Source: Candidatus Zixiibacteriota bacterium
GTDB lineage: Bacteria > Zixibacteria > MSB-5A5 > DG-27
Direction of reading: 5' to 3'
Assembly (NCBI GenBank): GCA_030605835.1
Contig: JAUWHO010000042.1
Span: forward strand, 5,732-69,731
DNA: 64,000 bases
A model generated the notes under the pieces. It did no database searches and was not told where the DNA came from. It saw nothing but the letters and a program-made list of their open reading frames with translations. A program made the position numbers and the translations under genes. How positions within the stretch are numbered: position 1 is the stretch's first letter; every line of letters begins with the position of its first letter. Below are positions 2,444-64,000 of this stretch, piece after piece.

Positions 2444-2536
2444 ACCTGTTCCTGTTTCCTGTTTCCTGTTTCCTATCTCCTATCTCCTATCTCCTATCTC
2501 CTGTTTCCTATCCCCTGTTTCCTATGTCCTGTTTGC
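2444..2536. repeat. Tandem 7-nt repeat tract (CCTGTTT / CCTATCT units on + strand; AGGAAAC / AGGAGAT on - strand)
   Basis: Read directly: ...cctgtttcctgtttcctgtttcctatctcctatctcctatctcctatctcctgtttcc...; lies between stop of M28 peptidase gene (2541) and start of BNR gene (2332), both minus strand. Confidence 0.85.
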
Positions 2537-2540
2537 TTGC

Positions 2541-4529
2541 CTACTTCAGAAGCAGCATCCGTCTTACCTCGGAGGTCTCACCAAACGAGAACATCATAAA
2601 GTAAACCCCAGATGAGTAGTCAGCAGCATCCCAGACAACTTCTTTGATCCCTGGAGGCTGATTCTCATCGACCAAGGCTGCAACTCTCTGCCCGGCGAGG
2701 TTATAGACCTCCAGCCTCACCTCCATCTCCTCCGGCAGATAGTAGCTTATCATGGTTGAAGCGTTGAAGGGATTGGGGAAATTGCCCACCAGCCCAAAAT
2801 CTGTTGGTACGGGCGAGGTCGACTTCTCCACTTCCCATCCAGAGATCCCCGAGCTATAGCTTTCGCCAGAGCCTCCAGTTTTGGTAAAAGTGAACAGGTC
2901 GAAGTCGTAGACAGAACTCGGGTAGGTCCCGACCTTGCCGAGGTACTGATACAATCCAGCAGGGGCAGGACCGGGTACATTTTGAACCAGGTCGAACACC
3001 TGGACGTGGCCGTGGGGAGCGAGGTGGACATTCCTCATTTTCAGTGGGCCGTGAGGAGTGCCGTCGGGAAGGATCACGTCCACCCAGGCATTGAAATCCT
3101 GAGCTTGGCTGGTGGAGTTGGCCAGAGTGACGTCGAAGGTGAAACTCCCGCCCTCCGGGGGAATCACTATCGAAGGAGATTCTGGATCGAGCTCTACCCT
3201 GACGATTTTTTCGCCGAGGATTCCAGCTAAGGAAGCCATCGTCACCCCGGCCCCCTTGACAACTTCGATTCCGAAATCGGTGTCTAAGTTCCCGACGGTG
3301 TCGGCAGTGGAGTGATACCAGGGATAGAAATCGGGAGCCGACCACATCTGGGCATCAATGGAGAATATCGCCGGGAAACCGTAAACCGAGAACCAGAAAT
3401 GGTCGCTACCGTAAGTGGGGCCATCTTCGTTCAGGCGGATGGAATAGGCATCGGTGTAATCGTCGACCATCTGGGCCAGGAAGTCGCCCAGGGCTATCTC
3501 CAAGGGCTTATTACGATCGGCATAGATATTGATGTCCCAACCGTAACCCCCCTCATATGAAATCATGTCGAAGTTCAGGACGCCGATTATGCCCAGGTTG
3601 TGTTGGTAGGCCCACTCGGCATAAGCCTCGCTGCCAATAAGCCCCTGTTCCTCCCCGGTGAAGAGCACGTACTGGATGGTATAGTCGAAGGTGTAATCGC
3701 TCAAGACCGTGGCTGTCTGCAGAACCGCCGCGCTCCCGCTGGCATTATCTTCGGCTCCCGGCGCATCGTATCTGGGATTCCCGGAGGTGGCATCCATATG
3801 CCCGCAGATGATGAGAATCGAGTCGGGGAAGCTCAATCCCGGCTGAGTGCCGATAACATTTCTCCACGAGGAATAGTATTCGAAGAACTCCGCATCCAAA
3901 CCCAGATCTTCAAGGTAGTCGTAAGCCCACTCTTCGGCGGCGCGGCACGAGTCGGCGTAGGAGTACCTGGTCACAAAGGCCTGAAGCCTGTAAAGCAGGG
4001 TTCTGTAGTCGGCCTCGGTAAAACGGGCAAGGATGTCCTCCAGGAAGCCATCGCTTGACTTCAGCGGCTCTCGGGCCGAGGGTCCGGATACCTCTGGCCT
4101 GGGGAGAGGTTTCATAGGTATTCTGGTGAGGCCGAAACCGATTCTCGCGATCCTTTCAATTGCCTCCGGAGAGGCAATGATTAGGGCATTTTCACCGTCG
4201 AAGTAGTTGACAGCCACCAGCATTTCAAGAACAGGAATGGCCTCAGGAGTCACCCGCAGGAGATATAGGGCCTCTCCCGGAACCGGCGAGGGCAATCCCC
4301 GAAGTGCGAATTCCTCCAGAACCTCAGCGGAGAATGTCTCCTTCTCAAATCCCACCACGGCTTCGTCCCCGAAAAGGGCATATACCTCAAACCCCTCCTC
4401 CCAAAAAGCCACTCGGCTTTGGCCTTCAGGAACCGTGGCCACGCCGAGATTTAGATCACCGGCGACCAAAAGCGCCGCCACCGAAACCACCAAGAGTAGC
4501 GACAGGATAACTGCGAACCTCAGTCTCAT
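2541..4529 (-). CDS. Secreted M28-family zinc aminopeptidase with T9SS C-terminal sorting domain
   Basis: ORF track 2541..4808 trimmed to internal ATG (residue 94, MRLRFAVILSLLLVVSVAALLVAG signal peptide; GGAGAAGGAA upstream). M28 motifs HMDATSG...DNASG...FTGEEQGLIGS...GSDHFWF; C-terminal ...GVYFMMFSFGETSEVRRMLLLK CTD. Confidence 0.8.
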   Translation of the reverse strand: MRLRFAVILSLLLVVSVAALLVAGDLNLGVATVPEGQSRVAFWEEGFEVYALFGDEAVVGFEKETFSAEVLEEFALRGLPSPVPGEALYLLRVTPEAIPVLEMLVAVNYFDGENALIIASPEAIERIARIGFGLTRIPMKPLPRPEVSGPSAREPLKSSDGFLEDILARFTEADYRTLLYRLQAFVTRYSYADSCRAAEEWAYDYLEDLGLDAEFFEYYSSWRNVIGTQPGLSFPDSILIICGHMDATSGNPRYDAPGAEDNASGSAAVLQTATVLSDYTFDYTIQYVLFTGEEQGLIGSEAYAEWAYQHNLGIIGVLNFDMISYEGGYGWDINIYADRNKPLEIALGDFLAQMVDDYTDAYSIRLNEDGPTYGSDHFWFSVYGFPAIFSIDAQMWSAPDFYPWYHSTADTVGNLDTDFGIEVVKGAGVTMASLAGILGEKIVRVELDPESPSIVIPPEGGSFTFDVTLANSTSQAQDFNAWVDVILPDGTPHGPLKMRNVHLAPHGHVQVFDLVQNVPGPAPAGLYQYLGKVGTYPSSVYDFDLFTFTKTGGSGESYSSGISGWEVEKSTSPVPTDFGLVGNFPNPFNASTMISYYLPEEMEVRLEVYNLAGQRVAALVDENQPPGIKEVVWDAADYSSGVYFMMFSFGETSEVRRMLLLK

Positions 4530-5038
4530 CGTTCCTTCTCCTACTTGTATGTGAACGTATCTTTCATGACGATTTGCTGCAGAACGGGAGCAAACCTCAG
4601 TCAGTCTGCTCTGCGAAAGTGTATCAGGCTTGCCAGTTTCCTGCAAAAGCTTCAGATCTGCGAAGGCACTACCGAAGATACTTTCTTTTAATATAGTGAA
4701 ATAGACAGATTTTGCAAATGCTTTTGACTTCCTCGGGCCGGACATCATAGCCGCAATGAAGGCGATTAGAGGGTAATCCGGTCCTGCCGACGAAACCCGT
4801 AGAAGCACGGCTGATGGACGAAGTATGGTGTTGCAGATTCTGATGCTATAGCGTAATTTCCTGATAGGGAGGAGATGTATTCAGACGCCGGGCAGCCGAC
4901 CTCAACTGTGGAGGTCGACCCCTTGCAGGGTGAAACGGATTCACACGTTTGAGGGTGAATCGCTCCCGGGAATCGAGTTAGAACGTATAACTGTAAGGGG
5001 CTGATCCGGTATGCGACTCCAGTGATTGTGAAAACCCC

Positions 5039-6424
5039 ATGAGGCTGACCACCAAATACATACTGACCGAACTGATCGGACCTTTCCTATTCGGGTTGGC
5101 AGTGATCACCTTTGTCCTGATCATGGACTTCATCCTGGATATTCTAAACTTGATCATATCAAAGGGGCTGGACTGGAAGACCATCCTGGAGGTCTTCGCC
5201 TTAAACCTGGCCTGGATGCTGGCGCTCTCGGTCCCGATGTCGGTTCTGGTGGCGGCCCTGATGGCTTTCGGTCGGATGTCCGCGGACAACGAAATCACGG
5301 CTTTGAACGCCTGTGGAGTTCCTCTCTATCGGATAGTTGCTCCGGCTTTGCTTGCCAGCGCCGTTTTGGCGTCAGGGCTGGTATGGTTCAACAACGAAAT
5401 CCTGCCGGAGGCAAATCACCAGGCGAGGCTCTTGATGACCGACATCACCCAGAAGAAGCCGGCCTGGAACTTGGAGCCTAACGTCTTCATCGACTATTTC
5501 GAGGGGTATCACCTCCTGGTCAAGAAGGTCGACCCCCGCACCTCCAGGCTGGAAGATGTAACTATCTACGATCACAGGGAGGGTGCCCTTCCCCGGACCA
5601 TCATCGCCAAACGGGGGCGAATGGAGTTCTCCGCAGACGGCAACAATCTGCACATCTTCCTGGAGGAGGGAGAGATTCACGAACCCGACGAGGAGGACCC
5701 CACCCATTATCGTCGTCTGACCTTCAGCAAACAGACTATAAACATAACCGATGTCGGGGGAGAGCTGGTCAGGTCCTATTCCGATTATCGTGGCGACCGG
5801 GAGAAATCGAGCTCCCAGATGTTGGAGGAGAATCGCCAGAAGAGAGGCGCCCTGAACAGGTCTCGGCGAAAGATTCAGGACTACGTCAGGACCGCGGCGG
5901 GCTCAGCGTTGGAGGGCGATATCGGCCGGACCGAATCCCTCCCCCGAGCTTTTGTGGTCAATCGCCGCCGCGCCGCCACCCTGGCGCTCAACGACAATCG
6001 CAACCTGCTCAGAAAAATAGAATACGAAGCCACTCAGATGAGAAATCTGAGTCGGCAAATAAATTCCCTGAATGTGGAGGTTCACAAGAAGTATTCGATT
6101 CCAGTCGCCTGTTTGGTCTTCGTCCTCATCGGCGCGCCTCTGGGAGTGATGGCACGTCGTGGCGGGATGAGCACCGGCCTGGGATTAAGTCTCCTTTTCT
6201 TCATCCTCTACTGGGCTTTCCTCATCGGCGGAGAGGAATTAGCCGACAGACAATTCCTGAGTGCCTTCTGGGCGATGTGGAGTGCGAATTTCCTCATCGG
6301 GGCGGTGGGCATAATCCTTCTGGTGAAGTCGGTGCGGGAAACCGTGTTCATATCCTGGGAGTGGTTAGACCGCCTCACATCCAAGTTCAGGAAATCGGCC
6401 TCAGAGGATAGGGGGAGGGCTTGA
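5039..6424 (+). CDS. LptF/LptG-family permease (YjgP/YjgQ) with a long periplasmic insertion
   Basis: ORF track 461 aa; N-terminus MRLTTKYILTELIGPFLFGLAVITFVLIMDF and C-terminal TM block typical of the LPS export permease family; about 100 aa longer than usual because of a charged insert. Confidence 0.7.
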   Translation: MRLTTKYILTELIGPFLFGLAVITFVLIMDFILDILNLIISKGLDWKTILEVFALNLAWMLALSVPMSVLVAALMAFGRMSADNEITALNACGVPLYRIVAPALLASAVLASGLVWFNNEILPEANHQARLLMTDITQKKPAWNLEPNVFIDYFEGYHLLVKKVDPRTSRLEDVTIYDHREGALPRTIIAKRGRMEFSADGNNLHIFLEEGEIHEPDEEDPTHYRRLTFSKQTINITDVGGELVRSYSDYRGDREKSSSQMLEENRQKRGALNRSRRKIQDYVRTAAGSALEGDIGRTESLPRAFVVNRRRAATLALNDNRNLLRKIEYEATQMRNLSRQINSLNVEVHKKYSIPVACLVFVLIGAPLGVMARRGGMSTGLGLSLLFFILYWAFLIGGEELADRQFLSAFWAMWSANFLIGAVGIILLVKSVRETVFISWEWLDRLTSKFRKSASEDRGRA

Positions 6425-7515
6425 TGTCGCTAATAGACCGTTACCTCGCCAGGACATTTCTTTACACTCTCGGATTTGCGCTACTTGCCTTTGTCTTAGT
6501 GTTTGTGATTGTTGACCTCATCGAAAACCTGGACAAATACATCGACCATGACGCCTCCCTCAGAGATGTCTTCTATTATTACGTTTGCTTCACCCCTTTC
6601 ATCGTGGTCTTGACTCTCCCGGTGGCGATGTTGCTTTCGACCCTCTTTTCCCTCGGCACCCTGTCGAAATACAACGAGCTAACCGCCATCAAAGCCAACG
6701 GGGTTTCGCTCTATCGGATTCTCTTGCCGATCTTCGGGATTGCCTTTCTGGTGAGTCTTCTAGTGCTCTTCAGCGCCGAATATCTCATCCCCCAGGCCAA
6801 CGCCGAGAAAAGCCGAATAAAAAGCTTCAACATCGAAAAGAAACCGAGGGCGAAAGAGATCATCAGGAGCAACCTGTTCTTCGAGGGGCGGGATCACTTC
6901 TTTTATTACTTCAAGAAATATAACAGTGAGACCCAGACTGCGGAGAGGGTGGTGGTGCAGAAGATCACGGAGGGGCGTATCACAGAATCGATTGAGGCCG
7001 AAAAGATGGTGTGGACAGCCCGGGGTTGGAAGTTCGAGAAAGCCAAACGACGCCTCTTTACAGATTCACTTGGGGAGGAATCCACAGAAAGGTACGAAGA
7101 GCACGAAACCCTTCTCTACCCGGTCCTGAAGGAGACCCCGGAGGAGTTCGCCAAGAAGCAGAAAAAGCCGGACGAGATGGGCTTTTTCGACTTGCGGAGA
7201 TTCATCAAAATCAAAGAGAGTCTGGGGGAGAATACCGCCAAAGAGCTGGTGGAACTCTATCTGAAAATCACCTTCCCCTTCGTCAATTTGATCGTGGTTT
7301 TTCTGGGAGCTCCGATTGCCGCTGCTCCTCGCCGGGGGGGATTCATGCTCGGATTTGCGATTTCGCTGATTATCAGCTTCGTATATTTCGCATTGATCCG
7401 GGCGGGGCAATCGCTGGGGCAAAACCAGAAGCTGCCACCCCTCCTGGCGGCGAGTTTCGCCAACATCGTCTTCGGACTTATCGGTCTGGTGCTTCTAATC
7501 AAAGCAAAGAAATAA
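6421..7515 (+). CDS. LptF/LptG-family permease (YjgP/YjgQ)
   Basis: ORF track 364 aa; MMSLIDRYLARTFLYTLGFALLAFVLVFVIVDLIENLDKY; 4-bp overlap with upstream paralog suggests an operon. Confidence 0.7.
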   Translation: MMSLIDRYLARTFLYTLGFALLAFVLVFVIVDLIENLDKYIDHDASLRDVFYYYVCFTPFIVVLTLPVAMLLSTLFSLGTLSKYNELTAIKANGVSLYRILLPIFGIAFLVSLLVLFSAEYLIPQANAEKSRIKSFNIEKKPRAKEIIRSNLFFEGRDHFFYYFKKYNSETQTAERVVVQKITEGRITESIEAEKMVWTARGWKFEKAKRRLFTDSLGEESTERYEEHETLLYPVLKETPEEFAKKQKKPDEMGFFDLRRFIKIKESLGENTAKELVELYLKITFPFVNLIVVFLGAPIAAAPRRGGFMLGFAISLIISFVYFALIRAGQSLGQNQKLPPLLAASFANIVFGLIGLVLLIKAKK

Positions 7516-7517
7516 TA

Positions 7518-7592
7518 TAGGAAACAGGGGACCGGAGACAGGGAACAGGAAACAGGGGGCCTCAGTGAACCGTGAACTGTCAACTGTGAACT
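7518..7592. repeat. Purine-rich 7-nt repeat tract (AGGAAAC / AGACAGG / GTGAACY units on + strand)
   Basis: Begins about 3 nt after the lptG-like stop (7513-7515): aggaaacaggggaccggagacagggaacaggaaacaggg...gtgaaccgtgaactgtcaactgtgaac. Confidence 0.8.
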
Positions 7593-7880
7593 AACCGGGG
7601 TAGCCTCCTGGCCTCGGCCAGGGGGATTATTTTGAACCCGTAGAGCGGTGAATTTATCACCGCCATTTCTATGAGCCGTGACCCCCTACCCCTGGGTAGC
7701 CCAGTGGCCTCTGCCACTGGGTCGCTTGCATCAACTTGGGTGTGATGAATTCTCCGACCCCTACGGATTATCTTTCAAGGGAATCGGAAATCGCATATAG
7801 GAATCAGTGAACGCAGCATTCATTTACAATCCATGACGGTCGGTCTAACGGGTAACCGCAGAGGTTATCCTCCAGAGACA

Positions 7881-7910
7881 AAGAAAGGGCAGGGGTGTTT
7901 CCCCTGCCCT
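7881..7910 (-). terminator. Intrinsic terminator-like hairpin (distal, third copy)
   Basis: gggcaggggtgtttcccctgccc preceded on + strand by aagaaa (UUUCUU on minus-strand RNA); weakest of three copies. Confidence 0.35.
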
Positions 7911-8017
7911 TTCGATCACAAGTAAGCTGGGAGCTATCTTTATTGTTCCGTCAGGACCGAAGCGTAGCGTGTCCTGACGGTTAGTCCGAGGCGTAACCAC
8001 AGAGGTCATCCCTGGAT

Positions 8018-8049
8018 ATAAAAAAGGCAGGGGTGGTATCCCCTGCCCT
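8018..8049 (-). terminator. Intrinsic terminator (second copy)
   Basis: aaaaaaggcaggggtggtatcccctgcc on + strand = GC stem followed by UUUUUU on the minus-strand RNA. Confidence 0.5.
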
Positions 8050-8224
8050 TTCGGTCACGAATAAGTTGAGTGTTATCTCTTGTCCATGGGAACGTATTCG
8101 GCCTCCAGTGGTCCGACGTAAACTGCCCGAGGTCTGAAGATACGGTTTACTGTTCCGTCAGGACCGAAGCGTAGCGTGTCCTGACGGTTAGTCCGAGGCG
8201 TAACCACAGAGGTCATCCCTGGAT

Positions 8225-8256
8225 ATAAAAAAGGCAGGGGTGGTTTCCCCTGCCCT
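8225..8256 (-). terminator. Intrinsic terminator of citrate synthase gene (proximal copy)
   Basis: About 25 nt past the gltA stop: aaaaaaggcaggggtggtttcccctgcc on + strand, i.e. 8-bp GC stem plus U6 on the minus-strand transcript. Confidence 0.6.
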
Positions 8257-8279
8257 TTCGGTCATGTATTAGCCGAGTG

Positions 8280-9494
8280 TTATCTCTTGTCAATGGGGAC
8301 GTAGTCGGCCTCCAGTGGTCCGACGTAAACTGCCCGAGGTCTGAAGATACGGTTCTGGGGGAGATACTCAAGGACTCGAGCCACCCATCCAGCCACCCTG
8401 CTGACCGCAAAGATGGGGGTGAACATGGGAACATCGATCCCGAGAGCATAGTAGATGGTGCCGGAGTAGAAGTCGACGTTCGGGAAGATGCCCTTCTCTC
8501 CGTAAGCCTTGATGACCTCTTTCTCGATGGTGTTGGCGATCTTGTAGAGATGCCCCACGCCCTTCTTCTCGGTGATCTCCTGGGCATACTCTCCCAGTAC
8601 TTTGGCTCTGGGATCGTAAGCTTTATAAACCCGGTGCCCGAAGCCCATGAGCTTTTTCTTCTTGGCGATGGAATCCTTAACGAACTCCACTGCACCGGCT
8701 TCGTCCTTTATCGACAGAACGTCAGCCAGGGCGCGCTCGTTGGCACCACCGTGAAGCGGTCCCTTCAGGGAGGCGATTCCGGCGGTGATGGAACTGTACA
8801 GATCGCTCAGGGTGGAAGCCACCACCATGCAAGTGAAGGTGGAATTGTTCATCCCGTGGTCGGCGTGAAGGATTAAAGAAACGTCCATCACCTTTTCGAG
8901 GGTCTCGTCCGGCTTCTCCCCGGTCATCATGTAAAGGAAATTGGCGGTATGATTCAAGGAGGAGTCTGGATCCACAGGCTCTTTGCCCCCGCGTATGCGA
9001 GCCCAGGCCCCGGCGATGGTGGCCATCTGCGCCGTCAACTTCTCGCCCATTTTGTAGCTGGCCTTGATTCCCTCGGAGATCTGATCCGGCTCTCCGGAGA
9101 ACATCTTCTTTACGGTCGGCTCTGCCTCCTCATCGCAGGCTCCCAGGGCCGAGACCCCCACCTCCAGGGCACCCATGGGATGGGAATCCTTGGGCAGAAG
9201 TTTTAAAGCATCGATGACCGCCCGGGGTATGTTCCGATAGGAAACCAGCCGGGAACAGAATTCATCCAACTCCTTCTTGGTAGGGAGCTTCCCGTAGATC
9301 AACAGATAGGCAGTCTCCTCGAAGTTGGAGTGCTTGGCCAGATCGAAGATGTTATAACCCCGATAGACCAGCCAGCCCTTCTGGCCGTCCACATAACCGA
9401 TGGTGGACTCACAGGTTATGGCACCTTCCAGGCCCTTGTTGAGTTCGATGGTGACCGGCCACTCAACTTTGCCGGTGAATTTCGGTTGAGCCAT
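8280..9494 (-). CDS. gltA: Citrate synthase
   Basis: ORF track 404 aa; citrate synthase signatures LHADHG, MGFGHRVYKAYDPRA, FPNVDFYSG; full-length relative to the family. Confidence 0.9.
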   Translation of the reverse strand: MAQPKFTGKVEWPVTIELNKGLEGAITCESTIGYVDGQKGWLVYRGYNIFDLAKHSNFEETAYLLIYGKLPTKKELDEFCSRLVSYRNIPRAVIDALKLLPKDSHPMGALEVGVSALGACDEEAEPTVKKMFSGEPDQISEGIKASYKMGEKLTAQMATIAGAWARIRGGKEPVDPDSSLNHTANFLYMMTGEKPDETLEKVMDVSLILHADHGMNNSTFTCMVVASTLSDLYSSITAGIASLKGPLHGGANERALADVLSIKDEAGAVEFVKDSIAKKKKLMGFGHRVYKAYDPRAKVLGEYAQEITEKKGVGHLYKIANTIEKEVIKAYGEKGIFPNVDFYSGTIYYALGIDVPMFTPIFAVSRVAGWVARVLEYLPQNRIFRPRAVYVGPLEADYVPIDKR

Positions 9495-9627
9495 TCATCT
9501 ACCTCCTAGAGTAAGGCTACGATTGAAGTTTGTTTTCTCTTGAGCCAAACAGCCGTCAAGATTGTTACAAATTTCACATGCTCAGGTTAAAAAAAACCAG
9601 AAAACGGCTTTCCTCTTCTGTAGCGTA

Positions 9628-9657
9628 AAGATATGAAAGAGAGCCATCCCTTGTCAA
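9628..9657 (-). promoter_or_regulatory. Sigma-70-like promoter candidate for gltA
   Basis: Minus strand reads TTGACAagggatggctctctttcaTATCTT (-35 TTGACA, 18-nt spacer, -10 TATCTT) about 130 nt upstream of the gltA start. Confidence 0.4.
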
Positions 9658-9768
9658 GTGATTTCTGAGAAAATTTCGCAAAAGGGTTGTGAACATTTCC
9701 AGGGGTTACCGACTGCAATCTAGAGCGAAGCTACGACTGAAGCTGAAACTGCCAGCGTCGACGAGTAA

Positions 9769-10689
9769 TTACTCCAGCACTAAATCACGAGAGCTGTAAA
9801 TAAACCGGCGGGGGTCGGTAGGATGACCTCGATAACGAACCTCGTAGTGGAGATGGGGACCGGTGGAGTACCCGGTCGAGCCCATGCCGCCAATCAGTTG
9901 ACCCCTCCTCACCTCCTGACCCTTGCGGACGTTTATGCTGTACAGATGCCCGAAAACTGTTAAATAGTTGTAGCCGTGGTCGATCTTCACCACTTTCCCC
10001 AGGGCTCCACACCACCCAGTGAAGACCACCTTCCCGTGGGCGGGGGCATAGACCGGGGTGCCACGAGGAGCGGCAAAGTCTATACCCTGGTGGAACTGCA
10101 TCCATCCCGTGAAGGGATCCCGTTTCATCCCGAAACCCCTGCTGATGTATCCTTCGCAGGGCCTTATGGAGGGGGTGTGGTCTAAAAGCTGCTTTTTGTC
10201 TGTGACCTCCTCATAGATGTACTCTAAAGATTCGTTCTCAAACTTAATTCGGCGATAAAGCTCATCAATGTCAGAACAGATCTCCTCGAAGCTTTCTCCC
10301 CATAAAGCTCCTAAAGGCAGGGGTTGACGGTACTCACGACCGCCAACACCCAACTGGCGGATCTCCTCATCCACCTCCGGCAAGCCAAATACGGTACGGA
10401 TGGCGTTCTCTTTCTCCACCAACTTCCCCAGCTCCGACTCCAGGCTATCGATAACGCTCTTGACGCCCCCCAACTCCGAGCTCAAAAAGGAGTTCTCCGT
10501 TTCAAGCTTCGCTAATTCTGCCTCCTGAGACACCCTGTTGAAAAAGCTCCAGAATAGAAAAAGGCTCGAGACGATGAAGAGAAATAGAATCACGCCCCCG
10601 AAAGCCAGAAGGCCATAAGGGATTCTCTTTTCAAGGATCCCGCGGGAATGGTGGGAAACCAGGATTATGGAAAGATCTCTTTTGCCCAT
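9769..10689 (-). CDS. M23-family metallopeptidase (LytM domain) with N-terminal TM segment and coiled coil
   Basis: ORF track 306 aa; GIDFAAPRGTPVYAPAHGKVVF...HGYNYLTVFGHL...GSTGYSTGPHLHYEV matches the M23 HxxxD / HxH zinc site. Confidence 0.85.
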   Translation of the reverse strand: MGKRDLSIILVSHHSRGILEKRIPYGLLAFGGVILFLFIVSSLFLFWSFFNRVSQEAELAKLETENSFLSSELGGVKSVIDSLESELGKLVEKENAIRTVFGLPEVDEEIRQLGVGGREYRQPLPLGALWGESFEEICSDIDELYRRIKFENESLEYIYEEVTDKKQLLDHTPSIRPCEGYISRGFGMKRDPFTGWMQFHQGIDFAAPRGTPVYAPAHGKVVFTGWCGALGKVVKIDHGYNYLTVFGHLYSINVRKGQEVRRGQLIGGMGSTGYSTGPHLHYEVRYRGHPTDPRRFIYSSRDLVLE

Positions 10690-10738
10690 GTCAGCTCTCG
10701 GCTACACGTCCATTTCCTTATCGTTAAGATTCCTTGTG

Positions 10739-10768
10739 AACTTAATAGCAAGGGGCAATTATGTCAAG
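10739..10768 (-). promoter_or_regulatory. Sigma-70-like promoter candidate for M23 peptidase gene
   Basis: Minus strand: TTGACAtaattgccccttgctatTAAGTT (-35 TTGACA, 17-18-nt spacer, -10 TAAGTT) about 50 nt upstream of the start at 10689. Confidence 0.4.
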
Positions 10769-10918
10769 GACTTTGAGTCTATCCCGCTAACGATTCTCTC
10801 CCGGGCGCGACCCAAGAGCTTCAAGTAGAATTCAGAAACCACGCCTGCTGCTCCCTAACACTCAAACACCAACCTCTGCTCACCGCTCAGGCTTGGTTCT
10901 CTCAGTCATCTTTCTTGT

Positions 10919-12142
10919 CTATGCTGTTCTCAAGGATCCAATTATTTGGACCTTTACCCTATCCCCGGCTCGGAGGTATGGTATCTCCGGAGGCAAGACC
11001 ACCAAACCGTTAGCCTGACCCAGTGACTCCCCGGCGTTGCCATCAGATAGATTTATAGGACAGACCAAGAAGGTTCCCTCCTTTATCTTCACCTCCGCGA
11101 GAATGAAGTGCGTTAGGCCTCCCCCCCCTTTGACTTCAGCCTCCAGCTCGGCCGTCACTATCAAATGCCGGAGCTCCTGGTATCCCATCATCTTGAGGAT
11201 TGCCGGACGGATGAACTCCTCTAAGATCACGACTGCAGAAATCAAGTTGGGCGGCAATCCAAACACCAAGGTGCCATCGAAAGTGCCGAAGAACACGGAT
11301 CTTCCGGGGCGAATCCCCACCTTCCAGAACTTCAGGTCGATTCCCATCTCGTTGAGAGCTTCTCGGGCAGATTCGAAGTAGGCCGGGCTGGGTCCGGGAA
11401 GATTTATGAATATGTCGTGCTCTAATCCCTCTTCGAACTTCGGTTTCATCTCCTCCTTCACCCCGGAAACGATTCCCAGATCCACAGGGTGGGCTCCGTA
11501 TTCCTTTATTTGAGAGTGGATGATGAAGGGATTGGGGAGGCGATGCTTTCCGGGTTCGCTCTTACCCCCCAGAGGCAGAATGCCATCTCCACTAGTTATG
11601 AAGGATACTCTCGGAGGGCGATAGCATTTGACCTTGTTGACCCCTAAGAGCGCCAGGGTTCCCATGTCGGTGGTTCCGAGAACCTTGCCTCGCTGAAATA
11701 CCAAGCTGTCCTGAGGAATCTCTTCACCTTTGATCTTGACGTTTGCTCCCGACTGCGCCTCCCTGTAAACCTTCAGTCGGTTTGTCGATTCCCGGACGGT
11801 GTCATCGACGCTCACAACCGAATCAGCCCCTTCCGGCAGAGGCGCACCGGTGGGAAGCTTCAGGGCCTGTTTTCCCTTCAGAGGCTCTTCCCAAATCTCC
11901 CCGTTTCTCAACTCTCCGACCAATTCCAGAGTCACCGGGGAGCCGGAGCTGGCAGCTTTTATCGCTGCAGCTCTCAGGGCGTAACCATCGGAGGTGGAGA
12001 TACTGGAGGAGGGTATGTTCTCGGGAGCAACGATATCCTCCGCCAAAACCCGATGACTGGCTTCCAGCAAAGGGACCTCCATCTCCTCCAACACTCCCGC
12101 AGACTCTAGGACCATCTGTAACGCTCTGTCAACTGAAATCAT
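10919..12142 (-). CDS. moeA: Molybdopterin molybdenumtransferase MoeA-like protein (divergent)
   Basis: ORF track 407 aa; N-terminal ISVDRALQMVLES...EASHRVLAEDIVAPENIP...SDGYALRA follows the MoeA N-domain pattern. The rest is divergent, so the function is tentative. Confidence 0.6.
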   Translation of the reverse strand: MISVDRALQMVLESAGVLEEMEVPLLEASHRVLAEDIVAPENIPSSSISTSDGYALRAAAIKAASSGSPVTLELVGELRNGEIWEEPLKGKQALKLPTGAPLPEGADSVVSVDDTVRESTNRLKVYREAQSGANVKIKGEEIPQDSLVFQRGKVLGTTDMGTLALLGVNKVKCYRPPRVSFITSGDGILPLGGKSEPGKHRLPNPFIIHSQIKEYGAHPVDLGIVSGVKEEMKPKFEEGLEHDIFINLPGPSPAYFESAREALNEMGIDLKFWKVGIRPGRSVFFGTFDGTLVFGLPPNLISAVVILEEFIRPAILKMMGYQELRHLIVTAELEAEVKGGGGLTHFILAEVKIKEGTFLVCPINLSDGNAGESLGQANGLVVLPPEIPYLRAGDRVKVQIIGSLRTA

Positions 12143-20703: not shown

Positions 20704-20886
20704 GTCGCATTTCCTCTCACAACGCCCGACGGTGGAGGTTTGAGCTACCCGGCTTCTCGACCGTGGTGACTCCTTGCCTCCCCGAGCAGGCTTTCAATTC
20801 TCACGTATGACCGAACTTCAATCTGACCGAATTGGGTATCTTTGACGGGTCTTCTGACTCGAATACTCTCCACGTTCGCGATTAAA

Positions 20887-20920
20887 CCATTCACTATTCA
20901 CCATTCACCGTCCACCATCC
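20887..20920. repeat. CATTCAC-type 7-nt repeat tract (short copy)
   Basis: ccattcactattcaccattcaccgtccaccatcc; part of a segment (about 20846-20925) duplicated at about 21173-21300. Confidence 0.7.
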
Positions 20921-20997
20921 AGCTAGGGTGGGGGTTGAACCCCCACCCTCGAACGGGCAGGGGTACAACCCCTGCCCGAGCTTGAGCGAACCACAAT

Positions 20998-21072
20998 TCC
21001 CGTTACCTGTTACCTAGTTCCTATTTCCTAATTTCCCGTTCCCTGTTTCCTGCTCCCTGTTACCTGTCACCC
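20998..21072. repeat. Pyrimidine-rich 7-nt repeat tract (CCTGTTA / CCTATTT / CCCTGTT units)
   Basis: cccgttacctgttacctagttcctatttcctaatttcccgttccctgtttcctgctccctgttacctgtcacc, within the MacB-like/TolC-like intergenic region. Confidence 0.75.
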
Positions 21073-21210
21073 ACTTCTACGCGCGTCTCAGGGCCTCCAC
21101 TCCGCAGTGGTGTCAGGAGTTTCCTCCTGACACCTACCGTCAGGACGCCAGAGTCGCCTAAAGTGGAAACACCTGACGGCACTCGAATATTCTCCACGTT
21201 CGCGATTAAA

Positions 21211-21300
21211 TCATTCACTATTGACCATTCACCATTCACTATTCACCATTCACCATTCACTATTAACTATTCACCATTCACCAATCCCTGTCACCTGTCT
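21211..21300. repeat. CATTCAC / TATTCAC 7-nt repeat tract (GTGAATG on minus strand)
   Basis: tcattcactattgaccattcaccattcactattcaccattcaccattcactattaactattcaccattcacc..., ending at the MacB-like stop codon (21301-21303). Confidence 0.85.
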
Positions 21301-25484: not shown

Positions 25485-26006
25485 CCTTTCCCGAAAGGGA
25501 TGCTTGAGGCTAAGCTAATCCTGTCAAAGATTACGATACCCAAAATATAACTCCTCAAACCGATTGACAAGTCAATTTGCTGAGGTGCTTGACGCTGCCT
25601 GCGAGAAACGGTCTGAGTAAAAGCCGCACCTTCACAGTCATCCAAAACGACAGCAGATGTCAAATGACCTTCTACCGTTCCGCCAGGACCGGAGTCCGCC
25701 GAAGGCGGACGTGTCCTGGCGGTCACTGTTCTCGGTCAGACCTACGGCTCCTGTGAGACATGCCATTACTTCGGTCCTGACCGGACCACAGAACTTGCAG
25801 CGGAAACCCTTAGGTTTCCACAAACCAACTGAACCGTAGAGCGGTGAATTTATCACCGCCAACCTCCGGGTCGGTCGCCGCAGGCAATCCGCCTCTGGCG
25901 TGATGAACTCCGACCGCTACAGATTATCCTTTGTCCGGTCAGATCCGCACGGAAAAGAAATGGGAAACAGGATCACCCCCAAAAGGCCACAAAGCTCCCG
26001 AAAATT

Positions 26007-50676: not shown

Positions 50677-50840
50677 CTAAAGGCTGCTGAGCTCAGGAGT
50701 CTAATTTACACCTTATGTTTTCTATTTCAAGACTTTTTTCCTGACTTATCGTTGTGGCGTCGGATGCCCACATCCGACGCAAGCTCCCCGTTGAACCCCT
50801 CAGCTCGGGCGGGAGTTGCACTCCCGCCCGCACAACCCCC

Positions 50841-50910
50841 GTTCGTCACGGACGCCCTCGTCCGTGACGTTTCTCGGGTACAGGACAAGGCGTCCTATAC
50901 CAACAGTGGG
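50841..50910. repeat. About 70-bp two-hairpin palindromic element (copy 1)
   Basis: gttcgtcacggacgccctcgtccgtgacgtttctcgggtacaggacaaggcgtcctataccaacag: hairpin gtcacggacg/cgtccgtgac then aggac/gtcct; near-identical copy at about 54764-54835. Confidence 0.8.
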
Positions 50911-53657: not shown

Positions 53658-53690
53658 CCCTGTCTACTACCTACTATCTACTACCTACTG
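53658..53690. repeat. CTACTAC / CTACTGT 7-nt repeat tract
   Basis: ccctgtctactacctactatctactacctactg, overlapping the last codons and stop (53685-53687) of the ORF ending at 53685. Confidence 0.8.
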
Positions 53691-54141: not shown

Positions 54142-54206
54142 ATTTCCTATTTCCTATTTCCTATTTCCTGTCTACTGTCTACTGTCTACTACCTACTACC
54201 TACTAA
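54142..54206. repeat. CCTATTT / CTACTGT / CTACTAC 7-nt repeat tract
   Basis: catttcctatttcctatttcctatttcctgtctactgtctactgtctactacctactacctactaacc; overlaps the last 5 codons (LVGSR) and stop of the M15 peptidase gene. Confidence 0.85.
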
Positions 54207-54630: not shown

Positions 54631-54733
<103 letters not shown>

Positions 54734-54763
54734 CTTTCAACGGGAAGGAGGATTCACGACCCT

Positions 54764-54835
54764 GTTCGTCATGGACGCCCTCGTCCGTGACGTTTATCAG
54801 GTATAGGATGAGGGCATCCTATACCAACAGGGCGA
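54764..54835. repeat. About 70-bp two-hairpin palindromic element (copy 2)
   Basis: gttcgtcatggacgccctcgtccgtgacgtttatcaggtataggatgagggcatcctataccaacag; flanked on both sides by 7-nt repeat tracts. Confidence 0.8.
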
Positions 54836-60195: not shown

Positions 60196-60618
60196 TTAGT
60201 TCAATATGAGGGTGACCTCAGTGGAGCCGTGAACCGCGATGACGGTGCCCCGGGCGACGTTTCCGCCGGCGGGGTCATTGCCCGCCAGGGCTGGGGCCTG
60301 CTTGACACTGCCGTCGCCATCGACCACCACTCTACCCCCCAACCCCGGCACCGTTGCGGTGGCAGGCAATGTGGCCACGCCTCCCACCTGCACCGTGGCG
60401 ACGCGTTTGCCTTGATCGGCATCGGTCAGGGTCAAATCCGCCAGCTTCCCTAAGAGAACGTCTCCATCGCTGCCGAAACTGACTTCGTAATCGTCGCTGA
60501 TGGCGACCGCTTTTCCGATGTCTTCGTCCTTGAGGTCGTCAACATCTCCGGTCTGATGGATTTCGAAGGTGGCGAAGACCGCCCCCACGTTTTCTAAGTT
60601 CTGATCTCTAACGCTCAT
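60196..60618 (-). CDS. DUF2190-like small Gly/Val/Ala-rich protein (phage head-associated family; tentative)
   Basis: ORF track 140 aa; ...GKLADLTLTDADQGKRVATVQVGGVATLPATATVPGLGGRVVVDGDG pattern resembles DUF2190 from memory. Confidence 0.35.
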   Translation of the reverse strand: MSVRDQNLENVGAVFATFEIHQTGDVDDLKDEDIGKAVAISDDYEVSFGSDGDVLLGKLADLTLTDADQGKRVATVQVGGVATLPATATVPGLGGRVVVDGDGSVKQAPALAGNDPAGGNVARGTVIAVHGSTEVTLILN

Positions 60619-60864
60619 TTCCGTCTCCTATTCTGAGTTATTCTCTGTCCTATCGTTGAGCGGCGACAACGCCGCCTGAAACTGTCAGGCAGGAATGCCT
60701 GACCTGTCATTTCGGTCAGGCAGCAATGTCCGGCCTATTCCTAATATTACATCCCTAATAGGCTGGGCTTTTCCGCCGGGGACTGCCCGAGGCAGTCAAG
60801 CGGATCAGCCTCTGGCTGACCAGCCCAGCGCTCAAATATGCGTGGAGCAGCAATGCCAGACCCT

Positions 60865-61266
60865 TTATTTGAATTCAGATGTGGTGAGGTAATCATCTTC
60901 GGTCAGTTCTTCCTGGTGTGACCCTGGTCGATTCGGCAGACACCGATTGAACTCTGAGGTCACCTCTTTTTTCAGCAACTTCAGATCCTCGTAACTGAGA
61001 TCCTGGCTGTCTAAAAGCTTGGTGATCATGGAGGCCGAGGTGGTCTCCCCTTTCACCTTCGTGATGGCGGAGAGCATCCTTCTCACCTCGTTCTTCACAT
61101 CCTCGGTGATTCTGACAGCTAAGGAGCTTTTTTCGCGAAGATCCACGAGCGCTTCCTTGGCCATCTCCAAATCCGAGATCAGGGCATCGAAGTCGATCAA
61201 ATCCAGGCTTTCAGCTTTTAGAAACCTGGTGTAATCTCCAAGCCTTTCAGCGATATCTTTGGACAT
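60865..61266 (-). CDS. Acidic coiled-coil protein (scaffold-like; tentative)
   Basis: ORF track 133 aa; predicted mostly helical, highly charged (E/D/K-rich). Confidence 0.3.
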   Translation of the reverse strand: MSKDIAERLGDYTRFLKAESLDLIDFDALISDLEMAKEALVDLREKSSLAVRITEDVKNEVRRMLSAITKVKGETTSASMITKLLDSQDLSYEDLKLLKKEVTSEFNRCLPNRPGSHQEELTEDDYLTTSEFK

Positions 61267-61302: not shown

Positions 61303-61352
61303 CCCTACCTACTACCTACTCACCACTAACCACTCACCACTCACCACTCACC
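61303..61352. repeat. CTACCTA / CACTCAC 7-nt repeat tract
   Basis: cccctacctactacctactcaccactaaccactcaccactcaccactcacc; overlaps the last codons (GEW) and stop of the 98-aa ORF and precedes the next gene's start. Confidence 0.85.
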
Positions 61353-61637
61353 TTTCCTGGTTTGATATTCGATTTTCATCAACCGAGTGTTGATCTGTTC
61401 CCTGAACTCGAAGAACTCCTCCTTGGTGATGAATTTGCTGTTCAGGAGCACCTCGATGTTGGACAGTCTTTTGTCCAGCTGGTCGACGTTGGCGGCTTCG
61501 GCTTTGTTTGCGAGGTCAAGCCTTATGCCACCTATGGTGGTGTAGTAGGCCGCCAGAACTCCGCAAACCGTGACCAGAAAGGCAACCGCGAACTGTAACA
61601 GTTCCCTTTTGCCCAGGAACTTGACGTTATTCTTCAT
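61341..61637 (-). CDS. Small membrane-anchored coiled-coil protein
   Basis: ORF track 98 aa; N-terminal TM helix LLQFAVAFLVTVCGVLAAYYTTIGGI then heptad-rich region. Confidence 0.35.
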   Translation of the reverse strand: MKNNVKFLGKRELLQFAVAFLVTVCGVLAAYYTTIGGIRLDLANKAEAANVDQLDKRLSNIEVLLNSKFITKEEFFEFREQINTRLMKIEYQTRKGEW

Positions 61638-62706
61638 CTTGAGATTTCATTCTGTAAAAAAGCCAGCGGAATTTTTTGTTGATGATTATCTTCCGGAAGC
61701 GGAAATCCCCGCTCAGGTGTGGAGACAGAAACTGTATCTCCATTAGGTCCCGATTAAGACGGGTAGGTGCTATCTCTTCCGGAGGAATAGTAATATCTTC
61801 GACCGGAATCTCATCCTTTTGTTGCCCCGGTCTGCCGTCCTGCAAACACAAGTCTGCCAGGAAGCATCTGCCCTGTCTGATTCTCTCTTCATATCCGGAG
61901 GGCAGAGCGAACTGATATCTATTCCCGTTGACGGAGAAGGAGAAACGGAATCTCTTGTCCTCTTCTTTCGGGACTTGACCCGGCGGCTTTTGACCCAGGT
62001 AGCCCTGCAGCGAGAAGAAATCTAGCTCCTTGGTGATCCTGGTATTTGGAGTGGCGCCGCGGTAAACTAAAGAGGTCTCCAGAATCTTTTCAACGCCACG
62101 GTAGTTGAAATAAGCGGTCTGGAGCTCACCCGAGGGGCCTCGATACTTACGGAAGGGTATATGTTTGCATTCTCGTATATCCTCTCCGCAGATGCTGCAC
62201 TCCGGGGTGGTGAAGCTGAAGCTGATGGAACACTCCTTGTAGACGCCGGAATCGATGTTGGTTTTTAAGTCTTCCCCCTCCTTGGTCCCTTTGGCCCAGT
62301 AGAAATAGACCTTCACCCAGGAGGTGACCTCTCCCTTTGGGGAGCTATTCGCCCTCTCCACCACCGCGTGGAAATTTCTCGCCACTGGAAGCTTTTCTTT
62401 GGAATGACCGACCATCACCGGGGTGTCGACAAGCAGTGCCGCGATGCGATCGTGCTCCTCCGGAGGGAAGCGGCCGCCGCAGTTGTTCACCGAGTCGGAG
62501 ACTATATACATGGCCCGGATATGAACCTCCCCGTTTTTCACCGGGCGGGGTGGCCGGATGCGTCTGTTTATGAGGTTTATCAGTTCCTCCTCTTTGGAGG
62601 GGCTTTTCGTTCCCGCCTCTAAACGTGCTTTTAGCTTACCGTTCAACTGTGTCAATTTCGCCTCCAAGTGTCTCTCCACCCTATACCCTCTCTTCAGAAA
62701 CAGCAT
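61627..62706 (-). CDS. Putative prohead serine protease-like protein (HK97 gp4 / S78-like core with C-terminal extension; tentative)
   Basis: ORF track 359 aa; ...TPVMVGHS...(about 55 aa)...EGEDLKTNIDSGVYKECSISFSF has His-then-Ser spacing and context similar to caudoviral prohead proteases; start codon uncertain. Confidence 0.35.
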   Translation of the reverse strand: MLFLKRGYRVERHLEAKLTQLNGKLKARLEAGTKSPSKEEELINLINRRIRPPRPVKNGEVHIRAMYIVSDSVNNCGGRFPPEEHDRIAALLVDTPVMVGHSKEKLPVARNFHAVVERANSSPKGEVTSWVKVYFYWAKGTKEGEDLKTNIDSGVYKECSISFSFTTPECSICGEDIRECKHIPFRKYRGPSGELQTAYFNYRGVEKILETSLVYRGATPNTRITKELDFFSLQGYLGQKPPGQVPKEEDKRFRFSFSVNGNRYQFALPSGYEERIRQGRCFLADLCLQDGRPGQQKDEIPVEDITIPPEEIAPTRLNRDLMEIQFLSPHLSGDFRFRKIIINKKFRWLFYRMKSQDEE

Positions 62707-62868
62707 ACAATCGATGGTGTTTTCCCGCAGTGCTGTCGGGAGTTTCCTCCCGTCAGAAACAGTCAGGCCTATGGCGCGAATGCGTTTCCGCTACAGTCGA
62801 ATAGACTGGGCTTTGGAGCCGAGCGGGGGGCTGCTGCACGGGTGGTGCCACGTCGCCACAAACAGCTA

Positions 62869-62990
62869 GGGTGGGGGTTGAACCCCCACCCTCAGGCGGG
62901 CAGAAGATATCCGCCCTGGCGGAGGCCAGGGAGCTACCCATGTGGATTTCGTTCCCAGCGGGGTAGCCCAGTGGCCTCTGCCACTGGGTA
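62869..62990. repeat. Cluster of GC-rich palindromic elements shared with other intergenic regions
   Basis: gggtgggggttgaacccccaccc (also at about 20926-20948) and gggtagcccagtggcctctgccactggg (also at about 7693-7722), copies identical over 26-30 bp. Confidence 0.8.
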
Positions 62991-63117
62991 TGGTATTTCT
63001 TTGCGCCCGGCAAAAGGCAAGGAGGTGGAGTCTAACAATCCCCTATCTACTGTTTGCTGGCTCTGGAAACCTAAGGGTCAGACACCTCGTTTGAGACTCC
63101 CCGTCCGATACCCAAAA

Positions 63118-63216
63118 GGTCACGGATGAGGGCATCCGTGACAAACAGGTTGACTCCGGAGTACGAACGCCCCGGCTATGCCTTCCTGTTCCCTGTTCCC
63201 TGTTTCCTGTCTCCTG
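63118..63216. repeat. Hairpin element (gtcacggatgagggcatccgtgac) followed by CCTGTTC-type 7-nt repeats
   Basis: Variant of the two-hairpin element plus ccttcctgttccctgttccctgtttcctgtctcctg. Confidence 0.75.
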
Positions 63217-63511
63217 AAAACCAGGCGCAGAGGAAACCAACCTCCTCCCGTGAATTGCATCCATCTTCAGAAACAGCATACAATCGGTGGTATTTTTGGT
63301 GTTCATTTCCCATACAGAATATGCAATCGTATTCCTACCGACCTGCCTGTGAGAAGAAGGGTGAAAAGATTTTCATTGGGGTTAAAAAACACACAGCTCT
63401 GTCTCTCCTAACTTCATCTATAACACAGGTTTATCTTGATGGTGGAAAGCCAGGGCGCTGGCACGTTCCTTGCTGAAAAAGGAGCTCGAATTAGAAAATG
63501 AGGAGTTATCG

Positions 63512-64000
63512 ATGAAAAGAATCTACCTACTTTCGTTCGCTCTGGGGACTTTGCTGTTCTTCGGTTCCCCGCTATACGCGTTCAATTTTCAGTATTACGA
63601 TTTCGGGAGCGATCCTTTCACAGCGGACAACAACACCAGCCCGATATGTTATCCCCATGGGATCGGGTATCAGCCCTCGCCGGGTGATAACCCTCAATGG
63701 GAGGGGGGCGAGAAGTTCGACTACGAGGGGCTCTTCGCCCAGGTTGATATGAATTACATCAATGTGGCGGTCACCTCCTCCTTCGGGGACATTGCTCACT
63801 CCACCGGCTGGAATCAGGATTATGCCGCTGGGGACCTTTTCTTCAGCTTCCAGGGGGACGACCGGCTGTTTGCGGTGGACATCACCGATGCCACCCTGTG
63901 GGAGGTGGACACCTGGTTGGGGATTACCGATCGTCCCGGCACCTATTATGACTATCCGGACATCCGGAACCAGATCGGGCCCTGGGCGATTGAGACCGGC
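63512..64000 (+). CDS. Secreted hypothetical protein (partial; continues past window end)
   Basis: ATG preceded by AAAATGAGGAG; translation MKRIYLLSFALGTLLFFGSPLYAFNFQYYDFGSDPF... is open for 163 codons to the window edge; signal peptide; not in ORF track because no stop in window. Confidence 0.6.
   Translation, partial: MKRIYLLSFALGTLLFFGSPLYAFNFQYYDFGSDPFTADNNTSPICYPHGIGYQPSPGDNPQWEGGEKFDYEGLFAQVDMNYINVAVTSSFGDIAHSTGWNQDYAAGDLFFSFQGDDRLFAVDITDATLWEVDTWLGITDRPGTYYDYPDIRNQIGPWAIETG

Follow-up and report, generated by a model that had tools for sequence, protein, structure and literature searches.

The intergenic regions of a Zixibacteria lineage have, very probably, been colonised by several families of repetitive extragenic palindromic (REP) elements, which we describe here from a 64,000-nt stretch of Candidatus Zixiibacteriota DNA (GenBank assembly GCA_030605835.1, contig JAUWHO010000042.1, positions 5,732 to 69,731; this whole stretch is hereafter the window). 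The elements are short tagged hairpins that are present in many copies, carry compensatory changes in their stems, lie largely outside genes, are restricted to the lineage, differ as whole modules between orthologous spacers and, in related contigs, flank genes for REP-associated tyrosine transposases (RAYTs), which would mobilise them. An original prediction, made from the window alone, had proposed three families of palindromic repeats shared between distant intergenic regions, including a cluster at 62869-62990, and gave the elements no name; here, motifs 2 and 3 are identified as GTAG-tagged REPs, and motif 2, as well as a further hairpin pair termed X and Y, is tied to RAYT genes.

Recurrent hairpins in a Zixibacteria chromosome

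The window is chromosomal DNA of an uncultivated Zixibacteria lineage. Stretches of it are 92-97% identical to contigs of the Zixibacteria metagenome-assembled genome (MAG) K_1_bin.48, and several JGI metagenome contigs align to it at 87-95%. The named homologues of its MurJ are Zixibacteria proteins of ~57% identity, with a few unnamed metagenome proteins at 83-98%, and the genes that flank the repeats are ordinary chromosomal ones, encoding LptF/G, citrate synthase, an outer-membrane efflux protein (OEP), MacB, MurJ and enolase. Exact-sequence searches with two of the window's proteins returned no record.

All three predicted motif pairs were found, within a few bases of their expected positions. 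Motif 1 (AGCTAGGGTGGGGGTTGAACCCCCACCCTC) is exact at 20921-20950 and 62864-62893, and motif 2 (GGGTAGCCCAGTGGCCTCTGCCACTGGGT, the REP itself given as GGGTAGCCCAGTGGCCTCTGCCACTGGG) at 7694-7722 and 62961-62989. Motif 3 shares an exact 28-nt core (CCGTAGAGCGGTGAATTTATCACCGCCA) at 7638-7665 and 25834-25861, the 30-mer originally proposed having two mismatches within its first five bases at 7635. Additional copies were identified, of motif 1 at 20954-20982 (minus strand) and 50802-50830 and of motif 2 at 7598-7625 and 62914-62939. In 100 dinucleotide-preserving shuffles of the window per motif, allowing up to three mismatches, none of the three motifs gave a single match, which excludes chance as their origin. 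Folded as single-stranded DNA, motifs 1, 2 and 3 reached −13.5, −11.5 and −8.4 kcal/mol, respectively (z = −4.4 to −5.9), and none of 200 shuffles was as stable, in agreement with the claim that each is a stem-loop.

A generic inverted-repeat search (arms of at least 18 nt) missed nearly all of the hairpins, and a custom scan for stems of at least 8 bp was used instead; single-linkage clustering fused motifs 1 and 2 via common G-runs, for which reason family-specific patterns were adopted. Across 0.86 Mb of lineage DNA there are 467 perfect hairpins with stems of at least 8 bp, 338 of them in 16 families of at least four copies. The proposal that the intergenic space is built from a small vocabulary of palindromic modules thus applies to the hairpins and does not extend to the intergenic DNA overall, as only 1651 of the 8905 intergenic nucleotides of the window (19%), in 11 of its 29 intergenic regions, match a repeated module.

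Stable and conserved hairpins of this kind could also be parts of structured RNA genes that have escaped recognition, for example fragments of a tRNA or rRNA, a riboswitch or a small RNA, and a permissive Rfam search of 62650-63550 returned two 17-bit matches (E = 0.05 and 0.7) overlapping 62843-63014. These matches lie far under their cut-offs of 35 and 40 bits, however, and Rfam at the gathering score gave no match, and ARAGORN no tRNA or tmRNA, in the whole window; in addition, the units measure 28-31 nt and occur on both strands in more than 100 different flanks. The original prediction had staked itself on the motifs not being fragments of annotated RNA genes and, given that no Rfam match at the gathering score and no tRNA were obtained, they are instead multi-copy palindromic modules, leaving the RNA-gene explanation largely refuted and extremely unlikely.

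Motif 2 is a GTAG-tagged REP

To scan for motif 2, we used the pattern GGGTAGCCNNNTGGCCTCNGCCANNNGG, in which 21 bases are specified and six stem positions are free. Over 185,579 species (one genome each), 21 stretches matched, 20 of them in the Zixibacteria MAGs K_1_bin.48 and DG_27 (the stretches are given as 21, and their origin is listed as 17 from K_1_bin.48 and 5 from DG_27). The sole match in a genome from outside Zixibacteria (L020) was set aside, its stem being mismatched and ~0.3 chance matches being expected for 21 bases over 1.2e12 positions. In JGI metagenomes, 108 contigs matched the pattern. The window and 0.92 Mb of related contigs together hold 141 flank-distinct copies, a number pooled over contigs rather than counted per genome. 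The conserved unit in these copies is 28 nt long, starting from GGGTAG, and information content drops to zero on both sides, therefore placing the copies in unrelated contexts.

The stem of this unit covaries. At the free stem positions, 91.5% of pairs are Watson-Crick, against 60.7% after shuffling of the partners (maximum 66.9% in 1000 shuffles), and one pair varies over AT (64), CG (34), GC (16) and TA (9). Among the 44 distinct sequences, 92.2% of cells pair, compared with 82.0% when shuffled and only 35-56% in slid registers, and the covariation score of 0.231 (0.075 shuffled) was reached in none of 500 shuffles. Compensatory stem changes thus separate REP sub-families in motif 2, as also in motif 3.

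Motif-2 copies also form inverted pairs. Under a looser definition giving 182 copies, 50 make up 25 such pairs with GTAG tags facing inward 17-33 nt apart, each combining an A-type stem (CAGTGG) with a B-type stem (CCCTGG). The pair in the window, formed by 62914-62939 and 62961-62988, has its tags facing inward over a 21-nt spacer, folds at −24.1 kcal/mol and resembles the heterodimers of bacterial interspersed mosaic elements (BIMEs). The tag opens the sharply bounded unit and recurs in the REPs that flank RAYT genes, although its invariance over the 141 copies is no independent test, since the search pattern demanded GGGTAGC. Motif 2 is a GTAG-tagged REP.

The original prediction had called for the repeats to be compared with gene ends, operon boundaries and gene classes, and in the related contigs motif 2 proved to be largely extragenic, with 30 of 181 copies within rough open reading frames (ORFs), though these occupy 84% of the DNA. 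Sorted by intergenic class, 116 copies comprised 75 between same-direction, 32 between convergent and 9 between divergent genes, against 64%, 19% and 17% of intergenic nucleotides, such that motif 2 is enriched between convergent genes and depleted between divergent ones.

This distribution also bears on the view that the hairpins are primarily terminators or 3′-end mRNA stabilisers, alike through shared constraints or copying with gene ends rather than mobility. Most motif-2 copies lie downstream of genes (same-direction or convergent), a simple terminator scan flagged three hairpins within 62600-63600, T runs follow the related hairpins 8233-8254 and 7883-7913 directly after citrate synthase, and REPs in other bacteria are known to affect termination and mRNA decay (PMC3733652). 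However, motif-2 conservation ends exactly at the 28-nt unit with no conserved T tract 3′ of the stem, the unpaired GTAG tag is invariant and not needed for termination, copies occur in both orientations and in inverted pairs, and G-T and A-C mismatches are about equally frequent, giving no sign of selection on one RNA strand; because of these features, a terminator or RNA role is not supported as the primary one. Moreover, the same repeats flank RAYT genes, and the 62869-62990 cluster lies between divergently transcribed genes, the rarest context for motif 2 (9 of 116 copies). We consider termination improbable as the primary explanation and possible as a secondary role of the hairpins, which should not be labelled terminators or new small RNAs in annotation.

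RAYT genes are flanked by the repeats in related contigs

The metagenome contigs selected by motif 2 contain five RAYT genes of three types (L044; L051 and L117; L059 and L127). Their products score 80-122 bits on the NCBIfam model NF047646, "REP-associated tyrosine transposase" (cut-off 80), match Pfam Y1_Tnp and retain the HUH and Y..NP motifs, compared with 22-30 bits on the IS200 model, for which the cut-off is 55.

Two of the types are bracketed by motif 2. In L127, L059, L141 and L140, the start codon is closely preceded by a motif-2 REP and the stop codon is overlapped by another in inverted orientation, the tags of both lying distally. RAYT genes of the L127/L059 type, also those of L140, L141 and L143, are always located between the genes for the two subunits of methylmalonyl-CoA mutase, and the organisms concerned have a GC content of 38-45%. 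The L117/L051 type has motif-2 doublets on both sides, and the flanks of its cassette share 92-95% identity with L012 (a K_1_bin.48 contig), L124, L088 and L099; at the orthologous site, all four carry one motif-2 doublet and lack the whole cassette. The same REP-bounded cassette contains a 77-amino-acid ORF ahead of the RAYT gene (L117:975-1208, with an equivalent in L051) that matches the HicB-like antitoxin family PF15919 at 31 bits (cut-off 27).

The third type is associated with hairpin X, GTG-CCGTCAGGTG...CACCTGACGG (ccgtcagg...cctgacgg), and hairpin Y, TGTCRGGAGGAAACTCCYGACA-GCACTG (GGTGTCAGGAG...CTCCTGACACC; also cited as GGTGTCAGG). In L044 and the NCBI contig L131, X and Y exactly bracket the RAYT gene, which is located between purH and coaBC, and the purH-coaBC site is empty of RAYT in L108 and in K_1_bin.48 contig L015. 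X adjoins Y with no gene between them in at least 15 contigs and at 21102-21180 of the window. When X and Y are read on opposite strands, they prove to be variants of a single hairpin type whose GTGC-like tag lies outside. They represent two inverted versions of a third REP type, an assignment shown, among the hairpins of this stem type in the window, for the copy at 21137-21179. This copy is among the nested hairpins of the original prediction, which are real but lie at slightly different coordinates, namely 7948-7980 together with 8155-8187, 21137-21179 and 25680-25722. Those at 7948-7980 and 25680-25722 have no more than the stem type in common with X and lack a following Y, and may therefore constitute a family of their own.

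RAYT genes flanked by REPs, an arrangement known as a REPtron, are therefore present in close relatives and not in the window, with motif 2 as the flanking repeat in L127, L059, L140, L141, L117 and L051 and X/Y in L044 and L131, and the cassettes show presence/absence polymorphism at the same site among relatives. REPtrons have been studied experimentally in E. coli, Stenotrophomonas and Marinomonas (PMC8266576, PMC3479197), and GTAG-dependent RAYT binding and cleavage of single-stranded REPs is known for E. coli, S. maltophilia and Marinomonas (PMC8266576). With these systems as the source of the mechanism, we infer that the RAYTs mobilise the repeats described here: the RAYT, as an HUH/Y1 single-strand DNA nuclease-ligase encoded between two inverted REPs, would recognise, on single-stranded DNA, the hairpin into which the REP folds together with the tag 5′ of it, cut beside the hairpin and rejoin the strand elsewhere, allowing REPs or REP pairs to proliferate as non-autonomous elements. 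Mosaic clusters would then be built up by local duplication, by deletions between short direct repeats and by new insertions into older elements, and any influence on transcript ends or on DNA topology would be a secondary consequence.

Motif 3 is a second GTAG family and motif 1 carries a different tag

Searching for the motif-3 loop core GAATTYATC yielded 77 sites, 45 of which have GT[AG]G exactly 6 nt upstream. Motif 3 comprises 41 flank-distinct copies in 26 contigs, with the consensus CCGTAG-(6-nt stem)-GAATTYATC-(complement). Its tag, which the core search did not demand, is GTAG in 40 of the 41 copies and GTGG in one, always exactly 6 nt before the core. The variable stem is 87% Watson-Crick, versus 54% when shuffled (maximum 65%), and at least eight of its variants are complementary throughout, GGCGGT, GGGTCG, GTCGGG and CGGGCG among them; dimers occur as six tag-outward and three tag-inward pairs. 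Motif 3 is a second GTAG-tagged REP family; in both this family and motif 2, the unpaired tag directly precedes a hairpin of 7-9 bp. In the window, the motif-2 REP at 7694 lies between the motif-3 partners 7638-7665 and 7737-7772, and decayed motif-3 partners with an interposed REP or an inner palindrome explain part of the nested appearance of the hairpins.

Motif 1, written as the pattern AGCTNGGGNNGGNGNNNNNCNCCNNCCC, was seen in ~13 copies with an 11-bp G-rich stem and an AGCT tag; the tag is often preceded by CCACAAAC, and the base after it varies between A, C and G. It usually forms a tag-outward heterodimer of a GGGTGGGGG hairpin and a GGGCAGGGG hairpin, as at 20920-20982, where the partner hairpin is 20954-20982 on the minus strand. 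Motif 1 looks like the same kind of element as the REPs, and no transposase link was found for it in the RAYT search.

Whole modules differ between orthologous spacers

Comparison of orthologous spacers revealed turnover of whole modules. In the OEP-MacB spacer, L061 and L005, with coding flanks 92-95% identical, have a motif-2 REP missing from the window, and the motif-1 doublet and hairpin X are found in the window only, the heterodimer at 20920-20982 being missing from both orthologous spacers. Contig L007 differs from the window by one additional motif-1b hairpin, a 32-bp segment with a 10-mer direct repeat on each side; this hairpin is the partner of the motif-1 copy at 62863, which is a singleton in the window. 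Given that orthologous spacers differ by whole modules, the REPs are useful strain-level markers. In addition, motif-2 matches in Zixibacteria MAGs are often near contig ends and, since many copies lie within ~150 nt of one, REPs probably add to MAG fragmentation in this lineage.

Alternatively, the elements could be miniature inverted-repeat transposable elements (MITEs) that depend on a DDE transposase of the classical kind, or could have arisen simply by local duplication without a transposase. Duplication and deletion do shape the clusters, which are bounded by direct duplications of 33-65 nt and include a 207-bp tandem duplication, and the 32-bp indel lies between 10-bp direct repeats. 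By contrast, the 28-nt unit has no terminal inverted repeats beyond its own stem, no target-site duplication is conserved in 141 flanks, Y1/RAYT genes are the only transposase genes found adjoining the repeats, and local duplication cannot account for more than 100 unrelated insertion contexts, which together make a MITE or duplication origin very unlikely. CRISPR arrays and integron attC sites were also considered and dropped, because neither the spacing nor the size fits and associated genes are absent.

A 33-nt direct repeat (94% identical, 62691-62723 and 63264-63296, also present in the ortholog L007) encloses a 540-nt module cluster, and a 65-nt direct repeat (89%, 20857-20921 and 21181-21245) encloses one of 324 nt; the idea that these repeats are themselves dispersed modules was rejected, as each occurs only at its own locus and in the ortholog. 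At L139:1600-2010, ~60 nt of the purH 3′ end are triplicated, every copy beside an X-Y hairpin pair, and at L131:2940-3690 the RAYT cassette lies between two diverged ~41-nt versions of the purH stop and spacer. Direct duplications of this sort may reflect tandem amplification of REP clusters with flanking DNA (cf. PMC3733652) or an insertion route that copies the flank. Within the window, the 207-bp tandem duplication (7939-8352, 95% identical) takes in the 3′-terminal 73 nt of the gene for citrate synthase and its terminator-like hairpin, GGCAGGGG...CCCCTGCC, followed by a T run, as well as the nested hairpin at 7948/8155.

Several observations weigh against colonisation by RAYT-mobilised REPs. 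No RAYT was detected in the 64-kb window or in the 21 genome-scan stretches, using phmmer with E. coli RayT and a HUH...Y..NP regular expression, and K_1_bin.48 is without a cassette at both sites where relatives have one; therefore, the source genome may hold REPs without an active transposase. When a profile of the five RAYTs was run against the protein collection, the five matches inspected in their contigs all had motif-2-type or X/Y-type flanks, and none adjoined motif 1 or motif 3. The tag of motif 1, over its ~13 copies, is AGCT and not GTAG, and motif 1 is therefore described as REP-like and not filed as a GTAG REP. Transposition was not observed, and deletion or recombination could also yield the module differences, a possibility raised by the 32-bp indel flanked by the 10-bp direct repeat. 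Finally, the related contigs were chosen for their motif 2 content, making them a biased sample for the counts of the other families and for RAYT enrichment.

Relation to known repeat systems

REP/RAYT systems are best known from Proteobacteria such as E. coli and Pseudomonas, and the presence of several REP families with cognate RAYTs in related Zixibacteria contigs widens their known range. A search of the available literature found nothing on repetitive extragenic elements in Zixibacteria. The elements are nevertheless of a known kind and leave the understanding of REP function unchanged. The features described here agree with the way in which GTAG REPs, REP dimers and REPtrons are defined in the literature (PMC3733652, PMC8266576). 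As in the GTAG REPs and BIMEs of E. coli and other Proteobacteria (Di Nocera 2013, PMC3733652; Corneloup 2021, PMC8266576), an unpaired GTAG lies directly 5′ of a short GC-rich palindrome, compensatory changes define sub-families, and many copies are extragenic, mostly between same-direction or convergent genes; E. coli BIMEs likewise consist of inverted dimers of two REP variants (cf. Y and Z REPs), with a RAYT gene bracketed by repeats. By contrast, the host here belongs to Zixibacteria, at least three or four families coexist, and the REPs often abut 7-nt tandem arrays; the likeness rests on anatomy rather than on a match to the 24 published family consensus sequences.

The REPIN-RAYT systems of Pseudomonas fluorescens, as cited in PMC3733652 and PMC2817692, share with the present elements the inverted short-spacer doublets and the existence of several families, each with its own RAYT, and their singletons can likewise arise from decayed or deleted doublets, as at 62863-62905 compared with L007. 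By contrast, the doublets here are heterodimers, so that each REP folds alone and no single long perfect hairpin forms, and close relatives differ in whether a given site holds a RAYT cassette. IS200/IS605 elements likewise have a transposase of the HUH/Y1 type, and the dispersed gene-free X-Y pairs resemble one of their transposase-less, non-autonomous derivatives, but the proteins here score as RAYTs, and X and Y represent a single hairpin type in inverted versions, with no distinction into a left and a right end. Rho-independent terminators are similar in being GC-rich stem-loops in 3′ intergenic DNA, and a few copies do have T-rich sequence after them; they differ from the present repeats in the conserved 5′ tag, the inverted dimers, the RAYT link and the lack of a conserved T tract.

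A bolder proposal, which we regard as doubtful, is that the lineage holds a still-active multi-family REP/RAYT system with features new relative to the proteobacterial models. These would be the same-site gain and loss of RAYT cassettes among ~92-95% identical populations, one cassette with a HicB-like antitoxin gene; REP clusters and X-Y elements bounded by 33-65 nt direct duplications, hinting at insertion or amplification that copies the flank; and an AGCT-tagged motif 1 that would constitute a REP class outside the GTAG and CGTC super-families.

Repeat features of the window and neighbouring sequence

Table 1 Positions of REP and REP-like features in the 64,000-nt window
Feature	Position	Strand	Description
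Motif-2 REP, A-type	62961..62988	+	Unpaired GGGTAG tag, 9-bp stem CCCAGTGGC/GCCACTGGG, loop CTCT; exact repeat, −11.5 kcal/mol, fits consensus
Motif-2 REP, B-type (GGGTAGCTCCCTGGCCTCCGCCAGGG)	62914..62939	−	Inverted partner of A-type 62961..62988
Motif-2 REP variant (GGGTAGCCTCCTGGCCTCGGCCAGGGGG)	7598..7625	+	Stem altered by compensatory changes
Motif-2 REP, A-type	7694..7721	+	Same sequence as copy at 62961
Motif-3 REP	7638..7665	+	CCGTAG tag, stem GCGGTGA/TCACCGC, loop ATTTA
Motif-3 REP, second exact copy	25834..25861	+	Exact repeat
Decayed inverted motif-3 partner (CCGTAGGGGTCGGAGAATTCATC...)	7737..7772	−	Read from sequence, compared with family consensus
Decayed inverted motif-3-type partner (CTGTAGCGGTCGGAGTTCATC...CCGACC)	25868..25925	−	Second palindrome inside loop (nested); read from sequence
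Motif-1 element	62863..62893	+	CAGCT tag, 11-bp G-rich stem AGGGTGGGGGT/ACCCCCACCCT, loop TGA
Motif-1 heterodimer	20920..20982	.	AGCT-(GGGTGGGGG hairpin)-CGAA-(GGGCAGGGG hairpin)-AGCT, tags outside; −29.6 kcal/mol, z = −8.4
Diverged motif-1 copy (AGCTCGGGCGGGAGTTGCACTCCCGCCCG)	50802..50830	+	Three compensatory stem substitutions
10-mer GGCGGGCAGA	62896..62905	+	Indel point; L007 has extra 32-bp motif-1b hairpin (pairwise alignment)
X-Y element	21102..21180	−	Y = GGTGTCAGGAGGAAACTCCTGACACC (21109-21134); X = CCGTCAGG...CCTGACGG (21137-21179), ~18 extra nt in loop
Decayed X-Y element	62725..62767	−	Leftover 3′ arm of X, then Y (TGACGGGAGGAAACTCCCGACAGCACTG); repeat family D16
Nested hairpin CCGTCAGGACCGAAGCGTAGCGTGTCCTGACGG	7948..7980	+	Second copy 8155-8187 inside 207-bp tandem duplication
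Nested hairpin CCGCCAGGAC...GTCCTGGCGG	25680..25722	+	Inner GTCCGCC/GGCGGAC hairpin; found only in window

The genes on either side of the 62869-62990 cluster, at 61627-62706 (minus strand) and 63512-64000 (plus strand), and the one at 60196-61266 (minus strand) had no Pfam match.

A further covarying hairpin family, GGTCACGGATGAGGGCATCCGTGACC with the variant GGTATAGGATGAGGGCATCCTATACC, is located at 50844-50869, 54767-54792, 54800-54825 and 63119-63142 and has ~22 copies in the sampled contigs. Much of the sequence in the module-rich spacers is taken up by arrays of 7-nt tandem repeats, at 2441-2534, 7519-7592, 20886-20918, 21002-21071, 21212-21283, 53663-53689, 54142-54205, 54639-54735, 61318-61352 and 63183-63216. 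Their orientation tracks the strand of the neighbouring gene, the sense-direction heptamers being AGGAAAC, TAGACAG and GTGAATG or GTGAACT, and they differ by whole units between the window and L007. We take these arrays to resemble the heptamer type of cyanobacterial short tandemly repeated repetitive (STRR) sequences. In 9 of the 141 motif-2 REPs, GTGAACCAACCG stands immediately 5′ of the GGGTAG tag.

The ortholog L024, 93.5% identical to window positions 1776-11151, contains an extra gene of ~2.1 kb (L024:5792-7939) between those for LptG and citrate synthase, which encodes a 514-amino-acid protein with a signal-peptide-like N-terminus and is absent from the window (7834-7884).

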